The notes beneath the pieces are model-generated. The model saw only the letters and a list, made by a program, of their open reading frames with translations, did not search any database and had not been told where the DNA came from. 64,000 bases of DNA from Kofleriaceae bacterium (GTDB lineage Bacteria > Myxococcota_A > Polyangia > Haliangiales > Haliangiaceae): assembly GCA_965215005.1 (NCBI GenBank), contig CBDCCZ010000023.1, positions 79,325 to 143,324 of the forward strand. The letters run 5' to 3'. Every line of letters starts with the position of its first letter. Within the stretch, counting starts at the first letter, position 1. The translations under genes were made by a program, and so were the position numbers. This document shows positions 25,176-34,999 of the stretch, one piece after another.

Positions 25176-28100
25176 ATGAAGCGATATCGGCCAAGGGGTG
25201 AGCGCGGCGAAACGCCGGCGGCGGAACAGCGGCAAGGAGTGCCGGGCAAGGGCAACCGGGCGGCCGAGCTCGCCGAGATGCAGTGGCGCGGCGGAGGGCC
25301 GAACCCGCTTCTGCCGAGCCACCTGCAGGCGCGCGGCAGAAGCGGCGTTGACTGGCGCCGTTGGGGCCGGGAGGCATCGGGGGATGCGGTGCAGCAGCGC
25401 GAATCCGCCGATGCGAGTAGCAGCGCCGAAGTGGAGCCGCTGCTCGACGCGCGGCAGCTGACGCGGGCGCAGCGTCTCAATCCGCGTGGGCAAGAGCGGC
25501 GCGGTTGGCAACCCGAGCAGCTCGATGCCGCGGGGCTGGAGGTCGCCAGCACGGCCTTTGCGCTGCGCATTGCGCACTTTCAACGTGAGCGTGGGCTCGT
25601 GGTCGATGGCATCGTCGGGCCCGAGACCTTGGGCGCCGCTGGCGTCGCACCGGCGGCCGGTCGTGCACCAGCGGGCGCCGCGACTACCGCGACGGATGCG
25701 GCATCCTCGACGACCGCGCCAGCAGCCGCATCCGCGGCAACACCGATGACTCCTACGACCGCGCCAGCAGCCACATCCGCGACGACACCAACGACTCCGG
25801 CAGCAGCCGCATCAACGAAGCCAGCAAACACCGCCGACGACCAGCTCTGGCTCGCGGTTGCCACGTACGAGCTCGGCGATACTCGTCTTGGCCGCGCCCA
25901 TTGGGAGGCGTATCTGCAACAGCTGGGCGCCGACCACTGGCGCAGAGTGCTCGAGCTCGACGGGCTTGGCGTCGATGGTTGGGTTGAGAGAGCCAATGCC
26001 CTCGAAGAGCTCGAGGGCGGCCCGCCGCCTCCGGTCTCCGCCGCAGAGAAAGCACGGCGAGAAGCCGCCTCTAGGCTCGAGCTACTGTTTACCACCCGCG
26101 ATCGGGCCAACAAATTAACGCACGAGCTTCGGGGCCGTTTGACTGCCGACCTACGTCGTCGGGTGCTGGGCCCCGACACCAAGATGATTCGCGCCGGCCT
26201 CTATCTCGGCATGCAGAGCGCCGCCGTGAGCACCGGCGTCGAGGAAGTGCTGGCGGCAGCCGACGAAACCGTGGGCGCCGTTTGCGCGCTTCTCGCCGAG
26301 GTCTACGCCCTCCACTGCAAGTCCGCCGAGCTCGAGCAGCTGCGCGCCCAAACCGTCCACAGCCTGGAAATCTTGCGCGCCCACGGCCTAACCGGCCAGC
26401 TTCCGGGCGCGTTTCCACGGCAACGGAGCGGTCCCACGCCCGAGCTCGGCGATCGACCCGGCGACGCCAACGTGCGGCCCAATCGCCGCGCGCCGTCCCG
26501 CTCCTCGGAGCTCGGCGACCAAGCCGGCGATGCCATCATCATCCATGAGGGCCCCGCCGCGGAGCGCATCGATGTGGCGGCTCTCGGCCTCGATCCCTCG
26601 GCGCCCGAGTCCTACGATACCTATCGCGCCCGCGGCCTCGCCGCCTACGGTGCCGGCAACGATGAGCTCGCCGCAGCCTACGGCCTGCTGATGGATCGCG
26701 CCGCCGCTCGCGAACGCGGCGAATCGGCGCGCGCGCCCGTGCAGCGCCGCAGCAATGCGATCGCTGCCGAAGACGTGCAAGCCGCGGCCGCCGAAGGCAT
26801 TGCCACGCCGGCGCAATCGCTGCCCCACCTCGAGCGCCTGCAGCCCGCCTTCCAAGGCCACGACTTAACCACCATTGCCGCCCACGTCGGCTCCGACGCC
26901 GCCCGCTCCGCAAACGCCATGGGCGCCGAGGCCTACGCCACCGGCGAGCACATCGTCTTCGCCAACACGCCAGACCTCGAAACCACCGCACACGAGGTTA
27001 CCCACGTCCTTCAGCAACGCCAAGGCGTCCAGCTCCGCAGTGGTATCGGCCAGGTCGGCGATCCCTACGAGCGCGAGGCCGACGCCGTTGCCGCCAACAT
27101 CGTCCAAGGACGATCCGCTGCCCTTACCGCATCGGCCCCATCCGCCGTCCCCGGCACCATTCAGCGCCGTAGCTGGGAAATGGATATCAAGACCGACCTC
27201 TACGTCGCGATGTCCGGCTGGGGCACCAACGAAGACGCCATCTATCGCCGACTCAGCCATGCCACCCTGCCCGAGCTCCGCCAAGTCCTCGCCGACTCCA
27301 AATTGATGGCCGAGCTCCGTAGCACCCTCAGCGCCAGCGAGCTGCCCCGCGTCCTCGATCTATTAAACGCCCCGCTCGCCGGCGGCTCAGACGAGCAGAA
27401 CGCTCTATCAGAAAGCGCGACCACGGCCAGCAGCGTCCAGCGCAAACAAGCCACCACCGGCCACGCTTCCGTCACCGCAGCGCAAACACTTCTGCGCGCC
27501 GCCGCTCGCGACGCCGGCGACGGGCTCGCGGATCCCGACATATCCTCCGCGCTTCACGCCGCTCTTCGACTGCACCAGGCGGCCGAGGCCGTTGCCCTGC
27601 TACCGCACGACGTCGTGAGCCGGCTCTACGTCATTGCTGACTTAGCGATCTCTCGCGCAACCTGGCTAGAGGCACATTGGCGCGTCCATCAGCCAAGCGC
27701 TGCAAAGGATCTTCAGGCTGCAATCCATGCCATATCCGGCGCCCTCGAGCCCAGCGGCTGGAAACCCAGCAACATCGCTCCGGATAAAGAGCCTCGCAGT
27801 CTCCGCGGCCGTGGCGGCGAGAAATCGGTCTTCAAGCGAGACGATAGCGTCCTTCGCACCAGCTTTGCCGCGGTCCGCGAGACGCTGCACGCCCCCGCCA
27901 GCGCCACCAAGACGCATCTTGGGTCGCTAGCCGCACAGGCCATACCACACTTGCGAACCGTTCTTGAGACTCTCCAGCTTCCCGAGTATGCAGCCCCTGC
28001 TCGTCGTGTGGCATGGACCGCCGAGCTGCAACGAACCACCGCTGCCATCGATGCCTACGCGCAGTTATTGCGGGCTTCGAACCACGGCCGCAACGACGCC

Positions 28101-34078: not shown

Positions 34079-34999
34079 ATGGGCCTATTTTTCCGCTGTC
34101 ATCCATTCTCACGAGTTGCCTTGCTAGCGCTTCTAGCAGCATGTTCAAGTCGCGGTCAGCAAAGCTCGGGAGCTGGCGAACGTCCTATTGATGACGAACA
34201 GGACGTGGCCTCGGAACGGCCTACCACTCCAAAGATACAAGCCGCTCAGATTGCTAATTCGGAACCGAACCATCCAGCTTTCAAGACGGTACGGGAGGCA
34301 CTCTTAGCGTTCCCTCCACTTGCTAGTAAGCACGGCTCGGAATCCGGAGATTTGGCGGCAAGCAGCGGCAGTGGTCGCAAGCCCAGGAGAGGTCCTCCAG
34401 GCAAGACCACGTCTCCCTCGGTGCGAACGGAGAATCATTCAGACCGGAACCAACAAGGAACATCGGAAAGCGAAAAATGTATAAAATATTCACTAGAGCT
34501 CGCGACGCATTTATGCGACACGCAGCTAAAGTCTTAAAAGCAGAGCCCGAATCCATTTTCCTCCTGCCAGCGGATCCCGAGCTGGATCCGGATGACAAGG
34601 CTGGCCGGGTTGGGCGCTTTTGGCAGTTCGATGCGAGCGCAGGATCTCTCGCAGGAGAGCGACTACGAGGGTCGGCTTCGGCCGACGGAACGGTGGTAAC
34701 TCCGCAGAAGAATCTAGCTCGATTCCTCGAGGAGGCAGGGCTTTGGAAGAACGGCTCGGTTGACGCCGATCAGCTTGCCGATCAACTGGCTTGGAGCTTG
34801 ATAGGCCATGATCGGGTCGCGGGATCGACGCTAGAGAGAACCTCTCCCGGAGAAGGACGCCTCATCTTCGTGACCGAATACGTGGAGCCTGGAACGGAAC
34901 ACCTGCATCCTGGGCCAGAGGAGCGCTTCAGCACACGCTCGAGTTCAAACGCGATCACTCGGTCGTCCTAACCACGGTGGAGACGGCGGTTCCCCTATA
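34079..34999 (+). CDS. Lipoprotein, probably one gene split by frameshifts (ORFs 34079..34537 and 34477..34971, with a plausible tail to ~34999)
   Basis: LALLAAC lipobox; overlapping ORFs; alternative-frame tail QHTLEFKRDHSVVLTTVETAVPL*. Confidence 0.45.

Follow-up and report, generated by a model that had tools for sequence, protein, structure and literature searches.

Polymorphic toxins headed by a DUF4157 domain were described by Zhang et al. in 2012 (PMC3482391), who named the domain the PVC-metallopeptidase and recognized it as an N-terminal peptidase that stays constant, bearing the signature HExxHxxQ...E, ahead of variable C-terminal toxins. That paper assigns the peptidase a likely releasing role, notes the frequent lack of immunity genes, and mentions annexin-bearing forms in Haliangium. 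The same build was described by Geller et al. in 2021 (PMC8213781) as toxins associated with extracellular contractile injection systems (eCIS), and in the parts of that paper and of Danov 2024 cited here the role of DUF4157 is called unknown. For AlgoCIS, the accessible part of a preprint (10.64898/2026.05.27.728243) reports that loading requires a disordered N-terminal part, DUF4157 being dispensable. In this report, we analyze a stretch of 64,000 nucleotides from a Kofleriaceae bacterium (contig CBDCCZ010000023.1; the whole stretch is called the window), in which the gene for a 1428-residue DUF4157 protein is followed by a 5′-truncated copy with a different C-terminal part, the orphan cassette, and by genes for small proteins that are mostly lipoproteins. 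The constant and variable parts of such proteins are referred to below as head and tip. The locus is a polymorphic toxin locus of the class described by Zhang et al. and Geller et al. and not a new kind of system, contrary to an earlier note on this DNA that had called the system undescribed. Unusual for the class are the candidate self-protection genes beside the tips. With moderate confidence, we take the locus to encode a PVC-metallopeptidase (DUF4157)-class polymorphic toxin with a downstream store of spare tips, operating by the mechanism that is proposed below.

The locus shares with the PVC-metallopeptidase or eCIS-associated toxins a zincin that lies N-terminal to variable tips, multiple genes per genome, annexin repeats in some members, and an eCIS in the genome. 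It differs from them in that the zincin is found 550 residues into the protein, preceded by an extension that is specific to the lineage and contains a match to a peptidoglycan-binding domain. The locus is also unlinked to the eCIS, it has an orphan tip array, with lipoprotein genes alongside, and its tips are of no described toxin family. Cgo1 and Cgo2, which are cargo of AlgoCIS, likewise have a disordered N-terminal part, DUF4157, and a variable C-terminal effector, and a large size is tolerated there (Cgo2 has 1228 residues). Loading was shown for those two proteins, whereas here it is a prediction; approximately 450 ordered residues stand here between the disordered end and DUF4157, and no immunity partner is described for Cgo1 or Cgo2 in the accessible part of the preprint.

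In its layout, the locus resembles the arrays of contact-dependent inhibition (CDI; cdiA-CT/cdiI), Rhs, and MafB systems, where a full gene is followed by 5′-truncated copies that retain a short tract of homology and differ in the tip and in the small gene they carry. A lower G+C content of the cassettes and a decay that grows with distance are further points of likeness. The locus would work like these systems without being a member of any of them, for Pfam finds no CdiA, Rhs, or MafB domain here, only eCIS_core and PG_binding_1. The junction motifs of the CDI and Rhs proteins are VENN and PxxxxDPxGL; the corresponding stretch here is ASSVQRKQATT, which is the last stretch common to the main gene and the orphan before their tips diverge. 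The candidate immunity proteins here are lipoproteins, and the orphan can start at its own in-frame ATG, two further differences from the CDI, Rhs, and MafB arrays. No description of orphan tip arrays or of lipoprotein partners for DUF4157-headed toxins was found in open-access full text, which cannot show absence.

The open reading frames at 25176-29462, 29459-30034 (191 residues), 30059-31882 (607 residues), 31882-32466 (194 residues), and 34079-34537 were confirmed. The head of the 1428-residue protein begins with a disordered and charged stretch, followed in order by a partial match to a peptidoglycan-binding domain, a helical region specific to the lineage, the zincin in intact form, and a single annexin-like repeat. 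The constant head extends from residue 1 to approximately residue 760, and the variable tip comprises 667 residues. The eCIS-linked DUF4157 scaffold that had been proposed earlier was borne out, as Pfam eCIS_core (DUF4157, PF13699) matches residues 554-617 with 48.8 bits (cut-off 22). The zincin signature HExxHxxQ...E is intact, with HEVTHVLQ at residues 606-613 followed by YEREAD. Within residues 1-95, 74% are disorder-promoting and 29 are charged. No hydrophobic stretch was found in the first 120 residues (maximum KD19 of -0.21), and the protein is therefore predicted to have no signal peptide. Pfam Annexin has no match in the protein at E ≤ 0.01; the annexin-like repeat was assigned because it falls within the 92% identity to the first repeat of a paralogue.

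This paralogue, a protein of 1405 residues encoded on contig C10 of the same genome, is 92% identical to the main protein over residues 1-735 and unrelated thereafter. The shared first annexin repeat is followed in the paralogue by two further ones (Pfam Annexin, E 7.6e-10, 2 stretches), and its tip is a second HExxH peptidase (HEIAH) with a weak likeness to Peptidase_M90 (E 0.028, below the cut-off). The tips of the main gene, the C10 paralogue, the orphan, and an 855-residue DUF4157 protein of the genome have no mutual BLASTP match at E ≤ 1. As read from the sequences, a constant head with unrelated tips among paralogues is the build of polymorphic toxins. Residues 1-520 of the head returned only the protein itself and the same-genome paralogue in a word-based search of 5.8 billion proteins, to which length limits apply. 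When a collection of genome contigs was scanned with the head, a single spurious match of 26 residues was obtained, and the metagenome contigs gave none.

Motifs of the form [VIL]QR[KRQ] are found in the 1428-residue protein at residues 522, 662, and 754 (window positions 26739, 27159, and 27435). In nearly all of the DUF4157 proteins inspected, such a motif is located ~85 residues before and/or 55-65 residues after HExxH; the genome background is 0.132 per 1000 residues. The motifs may be a part of the domain or cutting sites. Two near-identical genes for proteins of 1735 residues (G000:C49:168512-173719 and G000:C37:92702-97909, the latter on the minus strand) match DUF4157 weakly and over part of the domain (E 5e-4 and 7e-4, respectively), and each is followed by a similar gene for a 238-residue protein that is not a lipoprotein.

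The orphan cassette retains two tracts of the head in its residues 1-99. At the DNA level, 26862-27010 corresponds to 30062-30216 with 88% identity and 27326-27459 corresponds to 30214-30356 with 85% identity. Approximately 100 codons are deleted between the two tracts, and with them the signature Q, the Glu helix, and the annexin-like repeat are gone. The eCIS_core match is accordingly partial (residues 2-53, profile positions 17-73 of 79, 34.2 bits), and the zincin signature is incomplete, with HEVTHVLN in place of HEVTHVLQ and no Glu helix. Because only these two tracts are kept, with a deletion between them, the orphan is without the N-terminus and its zincin is predicted to be dead. The full gene with an orphan tip and small gene is thus the layout of a polymorphic toxin locus, as had been claimed earlier, since the 5′-truncated copy keeps the tracts and carries a different tip. 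The G+C content falls from 0.692 in the head to 0.626 in the main tip and 0.610 in the orphan tip, and further to 0.559 and 0.566 in the two small genes that follow them; that of the whole 64-kb window is 0.65.

The earlier note had described three tandem pairs of effector and lipoprotein genes, of which only the first effector was full length. The first two pairs of reading frames stand, as does the 5′ truncation of the second effector; the third pair does not. The third effector is a decayed remnant with the last 125 residues of a tip and no start codon, and the lipoprotein gene after it is broken. The remnant at 33683-34063 is homologous to the C-terminal end of the C10 paralogue, lacks HExxH, is out of frame with the copied fragment that precedes it, and has no start codon upstream of a TTG at 33707. 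The coding sequence of the third lipoprotein is split between two frames, the signal peptide and residues 1-83 being read from 34079 to ~34312 and residues 30-219 from 34375-34929; its identity to the lipoprotein family encoded after the C10 paralogue is 37-44%. The interval 32509-33705, which the earlier note had passed over, holds a copy of 1164 bases (32517-33680) that is 97.8% identical to 21904-23067, a segment internal to the gene for an 885-residue lipoprotein, and that has sharp ends. No further copies of this source gene were found in the genome. Contigs of X1, the one public DNA run that contains this sequence, extend across the two ends of the copy; the run is probably the source sample and thus not independent. 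No RNA run with this sequence was listed. The copied fragment is evidently a rearrangement scar and not an effector, the third cassette is evidently debris that has decayed on both the toxin and the lipoprotein sides, and the locus appears to hold one live orphan cassette and one dead one.

In the first two pairs, the toxin and small genes are translationally coupled, as previously noted. The stop codon of the main gene and the start of the 191-residue frame overlap in GTGA (29459-29462), and those of the orphan and the 194-residue frame overlap in TAATG (31880-31884). The statement that the three small proteins are mutually unrelated also stands, with no BLASTP match among them at E ≤ 0.05. 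For the 191-residue protein, a search at E ≤ 0.01 of the order's 146 other genomes gave no homologue, and for the 194-residue protein, only two marginal matches were found in the 147 genomes of the order besides its own genome. The remnant tip and broken lipoprotein of the window are homologous to the intact pair on C10, where two lipoprotein genes follow the paralogue. In a genome of another genus (G024), a DUF4157 protein of 935 residues is 44% identical to residues 538-1390 of the paralogue and lacks the long N-terminal extension; its gene is followed, 4 bases on, by one for a 232-residue lipoprotein. Against a profile built from the lipoproteins of C10 and the window, it reaches an hhalign probability of 95.4% (E 2e-8); pairwise BLASTP gives 26% identity (E 0.003).

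The only two relatives of the main tip among the 147 genomes of the order are both found in one genome, G057 (L010 on C1 and L013 on C3). They align end to end with 28% and 26% identity and are parts of proteins of at least 686 residues with a charged N-terminus and without DUF4157, each followed by a lipoprotein of ~175 residues; between these lipoproteins the identity is 55%. This suggests that the main tip also exists as a free-standing effector. There is thus good genomic evidence that tip and lipoprotein are co-inherited in different contexts, for the metallopeptidase tip and for the main-tip relatives; the two live pairs of the window are without small-protein homologues of this kind. 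In this genome, all six DUF4157 loci from crude gene calls have a lipobox-bearing gene among the next two downstream genes (three by regular expression and the rest by eye). From the linkage, it is reasonable to infer that the lipoproteins are immunity proteins and, since they would sit in the periplasm, that the tips act on the cell envelope.

At locus L007 (G000:C10, 2854-9351, minus strand), downstream of the gene for the 855-residue DUF4157 protein stand three genes in tandem that closely resemble one another and encode lipoproteins of 405 residues with a weak PQQ/BamB-like match (E 0.077). The three genes look like an immunity gene array.

The orphan tip was matched by 12 proteins in a set of 1.84 billion representative proteins, and because 6 of the 11 besides itself bear an N-terminal DUF4157, it appears to be a recurrent cargo module. 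Its profile matches 33 of the 147 genomes of the order, one of them unpublished. A model of the orphan tip from a 24-row alignment reached a pLDDT (predicted local distance difference test) of 88.6 and a pTM (predicted template modelling score) of 0.88, with five long helices (modelled residues 1-201) followed by an alpha/beta domain. The conserved DPPSL...GAIGG stretch of the orphan-tip family coincides with its one strongly hydrophobic helix. For the main tip, a word-based search of 5.8 billion proteins, with length limits, returned only the tip itself, and the look-alikes in the ESM Atlas all scored below 0.8.

The search for eCIS sheath and baseplate genes that had been suggested earlier was successful. 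An eCIS locus on contig C40 contains Pvc16_N, two sheath, two tube, and two spike genes, and gp25, and it is cut off by the contig end. No match to VipB and Hcp, markers of type VI secretion systems (T6SS), was obtained with models in this 92.8%-complete genome. DUF4157 is matched in 136 and Pvc16_N in 124 of the 147 genomes of the order. When the two were cross-tabulated by hand, 122 genomes had both and 9 had neither, while 14 had DUF4157 alone and 2 had Pvc16_N alone; two of the genomes counted are unpublished. With the genome co-occurrence and the composition of the N-terminus taken together, delivery of the 1428-residue protein by an eCIS is plausible. The window itself encodes, far from any other tail gene in it, a 418-residue protein with two tandem Phage_T4_gp19 (tail tube) domains (54640-55896, minus strand), and a similar frame of 380 residues is located on contig C4.

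The mechanism that we propose is as follows. Homologous recombination in the second tract (27326-27459 with 30214-30356) would join the intact head to the orphan tip and its lipoprotein and delete 27460-30213, and with it the present tip and small gene, as in the CDI and Rhs systems; were the exchange to fall in the first tract, the deletion that cripples the zincin would be brought along. The small lipoproteins would serve in the periplasm as cognate immunity proteins. The tips would be bundles of helices with a single hydrophobic, glycine-rich helix buried inside, and they might insert into membranes. In the least certain step, the disordered N-terminus would load the protein into the eCIS encoded on C40, and the zincin would later free or mature the tip.

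A number of results weigh against this reading. All three small proteins had earlier been taken for lipoproteins. The second (LLLGAC) and third (LLAAC) have canonical lipoboxes, as read from the sequence with no dedicated predictor; the first has a lipobox-like LLLASTSC with no preceding basic residue, which is non-canonical and doubtful. A single regular expression for lipoproteins, with a background of 6.6% in 5323 crude gene calls, was applied to downstream genes throughout. It was positive at 5 of 21 loci of the orphan-tip family and at none of the other 16, one further case being found by eye; one locus from an unpublished genome had been left out of this count beforehand. It was positive at 1 of 20 blind-picked DUF4157 loci of relatives and negative at the other 19. 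The blind sample consisted of one DUF4157 gene per genome from the best ~150 of more than 2,000 matches, chosen on contig room and frame length with the downstream genes unseen. Set beside the blind sample and the background, the 5 of 21 speak for a linkage with this tip family. Lipoprotein partners as a general property of DUF4157 genes are rejected on the blind sample; because only the one locus was positive, the lipoprotein link would belong to certain tips and not to the scaffold. A complex prediction for the orphan tip and the mature 194-residue lipoprotein scored 0.00 against a mark of 0.32, with the fold of the partner uncertain and the prediction made without controls, and it counts neither for nor against the pairing.

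The tips themselves add to these points. Neither window tip has a Pfam family or a relative in the PDB by sequence, and the PDB sequence search with the C10 paralogue tip gave nothing meaningful. Foldseek found no match to the orphan-tip model at E ≤ 0.001. A likeness to pore formers of the colicin A and N type, in which a helical bundle encloses a hydrophobic helix or hairpin, was looked for, and the pore domains of colicins A, N, and S4 were matched only at E 0.5-1.3. The best match in a wide VIA search was apolipophorin-III (Z 8.3, root-mean-square deviation 5.9, 158 residues aligned), which is within helical-bundle noise, and the C-terminal domain was barely tested. The model of the main tip, from a 5-row alignment, has a pLDDT of 44.3 and is unusable. 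Kinship of the main tip to the orphan tip would rest on common intermediate matches and on an hhalign probability of only 2.7%. Because the fold matches lie within noise and the main-tip model failed, membrane insertion by the tips is offered as a hypothesis and not as a finding. With regard to delivery, contig C40 is without DUF4157 and the eCIS locus is unlinked to the toxin locus. The kin genomes are not independent, so that the co-occurrence tallies overstate the association. Of the 14 genomes that have DUF4157 and no Pvc16_N match, three are at least 92% complete and several are incomplete assemblies. Many genomes have at least 35 DUF4157 matches versus one to six Pvc16_N matches.

Real polymorphic toxins with spare tips could also be accompanied by lipoproteins that are accessory factors, such as stabilisers or envelope export partners, or merely unrelated neighbours; the targets would then be distant and no self-protection would be needed. 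We regard this as unlikely, while giving it real weight. According to the passages cited from Zhang et al. (PMC3482391) and Geller et al. (PMC8213781), many PVC or eCIS toxins have no adjacent immunity genes, only one of the 20 blind-picked loci was positive, and neither small protein has a homologue with a known role. However, the pairing of tip and lipoprotein is kept across loci, N-terminal contexts, and genera, the window pairs are translationally coupled, and the small genes switch with the tip while the head stays constant. Tandem extra copies, two after the paralogue and three after the 855-residue protein, are moreover typical of immunity genes.

The reading of the pairs as toxin and immunity could be kept with export by a route other than the eCIS, in which case DUF4157 would be a processing peptidase only. 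This we consider distinctly unlikely. It would agree with an eCIS locus that is unlinked and has no DUF4157, with the 14 of 136 DUF4157-positive genomes that lack a Pvc16_N match, and with an imbalance in number, one to six eCIS markers standing against DUF4157 genes by the dozen in a genome. The 550-residue head extension with its peptidoglycan-binding match is unlike typical cargo, immunity by lipoproteins implies action in the periplasm, and DUF4157 is reported in the cited part of the preprint to be dispensable for AlgoCIS loading (10.64898/2026.05.27.728243). Against such export stand the predicted lack of a signal peptide, the lack of matches to T6SS markers, the joint presence of DUF4157 and Pvc16_N in 122 of 147 genomes and their joint absence in 9, and an N-terminus that is disordered and charged, as eCIS loading sequences require.

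It is improbable that no conflict system exists here and that lineage-specific large secreted or surface proteins are simply duplicating and decaying, with lipoproteins nearby by chance in a lipoprotein-rich genome. The tips with no recognized toxin family or fold, the first 520 residues of the head that are confined to this genome, and the pseudogene debris in the array would be expected on that account. It does not explain why the proteins are built like a polymorphic toxin class already described, why the paralogue tip is a second HExxH peptidase, why a constant head is joined to variable tips with a drop in G+C, or why tip-lipoprotein pairs are conserved.

Highly improbable is a zincin that is itself the toxin, with the lipoproteins as its envelope immunity and the C-terminal parts as targeting or accessory regions, as suggested by VgrG2b of Pseudomonas aeruginosa, whose DUF4157 metallopeptidase is, in the cited part of Wood 2019 (PMC6899460), a periplasm-acting antibacterial toxin with immunity proteins that face the periplasm and are lipoproteins in Enterobacteriaceae; this does not fit, because it is the tips that the lipoproteins follow, with no change in the zincin, the main gene and the paralogue having near-identical DUF4157 domains and unrelated downstream lipoproteins, the orphan keeping its lipoprotein with neither the Q nor the Glu helix in its DUF4157, and the main-tip relatives having a lipoprotein partner without any DUF4157. 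VgrG2b and PA0261 (Tpe1-Tpi1 family; Wood 2019, PMC6899460) are like the present pairs in combining a DUF4157 zincin with an envelope-located partner, which is a lipoprotein in some species; the accessible part of that paper places the zincin as a C-terminal toxin on a T6SS spike, whereas in the present proteins it is internal, co-variation of the lipoproteins is with the tips and not with the zincin, and the T6SS markers gave no match.

The positions of the features of the locus are collected in Table 1.

Table 1. Features of the DUF4157 toxin locus in the window
Feature	Positions	Strand	Remarks
Gene for 885-residue lipoprotein	21581..24238	+	Signal end VAGAC; no Pfam family at E ≤ 0.001
Gene for 141-residue lipoprotein	24266..24691	+	LLVSC; low G+C (0.566)
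Gene for 1428-residue toxin, full length	25176..29462	+	GGAGG 6 bases 5′ of the ATG
Charged N-terminus	25176..25460	+	Residues 1-95; candidate eCIS loading sequence by analogy with Cgo1/Cgo2
Partial PG_binding_1	25566..25637	+	Residues 131-154; Pfam E 2.6e-5, 24.7 bits (cut-off 23)
DUF4157/eCIS_core zincin	26835..27026	+	Residues 554-617
Annexin-like repeat	27168..27380	+	Residues ~665-735; ends where the identity to the paralogue ends
VQRK motif	27435..27446	+	Residues 754-757; junction of head and tip
Variable C-terminal part of the main gene	27459..29459	+	Residues 762-1428; G+C 0.626
Hydrophobic helix of the main tip, IFVNILLSATTGYLGGLIG	28413-28469	+	Residues 1080-1098; KD19 1.52
Gene for 191-residue small protein	29459..30034	+	GTG start; lipobox-like LLLASTSC; G+C 0.559
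Orphan cassette, 607 residues	30059..31882	+	Truncated DUF4157 and a different tip
Hydrophobic glycine-rich helix of the orphan tip, LAIDVATAGAVGFIGSIVA	30980..31036	+	Residues 308-326; KD19 1.87; inside the modelled helical bundle
Gene for 194-residue lipoprotein	31882..32466	+	Canonical lipobox LLLGAC; G+C 0.566
Putative rearrangement scar	32517..33680	+	97.8% identical copy of 21904-23067
Remnant of metallopeptidase tip	33683..34063	+	Last 125 residues; 78% identity to the C-terminal end of the C10 paralogue
Broken lipoprotein gene	34079..34929	+	Family of the gene after the C10 paralogue; two reading frames; lipobox LLAAC

A gap of 484 bases separates the 141-residue lipoprotein gene from the toxin gene. 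The 24 bases 5′ of the orphan ATG (30059) contain no Shine-Dalgarno-like run. A scan of 24200-35600 for promoters gave 0 sigma-70-like sites versus 2.4 expected, and the 8 terminator-like sites in the same interval are at the level of chance (9.2). The summed contig depth of run X1 over 20500-36000 is ~13 for the shared head, 7 for the main tip together with the small gene after it, and 3-4 for the orphan and flanks. In one X1 contig, 21630 is connected to 35744, the shorter side of the joint covering just 21 letters. Both observations are at contig level, at which rare recombinants cannot be seen, and neither was read as biology.

On either side of the locus, the riboflavin genes of the window are split, with ribBA and ribE located 21.3 kb away from ribD and nrdR (14382-16162 and 37477-39150, both on the minus strand). 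Between them lie the whole toxin region, an amylase-like gene, a kinase fragment, and genes for a PEGA protein and a GGDEF protein. In relatives, ribD directly adjoins ribE in 14 of 23 cases and does not in the other 9. The 197-residue frame at 18454-19047 (plus strand) matches a protein kinase domain over no more than its first third (profile positions 1-86 of 263) and is probably a truncated gene.

The eCIS field has asked, in the passages of its papers cited here, what the role of DUF4157 is and why antibacterial eCIS toxins are often without immunity genes. The locus offers natural material for both questions, as it provides two paralogues with one head and different tips, an orphan with a crippled zincin, and tips beside candidate envelope immunity genes. 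It also yields a recurrent and confidently folding tip module that is present in no family library, in a bacterial order with very large DUF4157 repertoires (136 of 147 genomes, many with at least 35 matches). We consider it unlikely that all parts of the most far-reaching account hold jointly, that is, that DUF4157 proteins of the eCIS-cargo type are interbacterial weapons with tip switching like that of CDI and Rhs, that their tips are new membrane-inserting helical-bundle toxins neutralized by lipoproteins, and that the [VIL]QR[KRQ] motifs are sites at which DUF4157 cuts its own protein. If such self-cutting is true, it would provide a long-sought function for DUF4157, and if the lipoproteins prove to be immunity proteins, cargo of the eCIS type can act in the periplasm of other bacteria.

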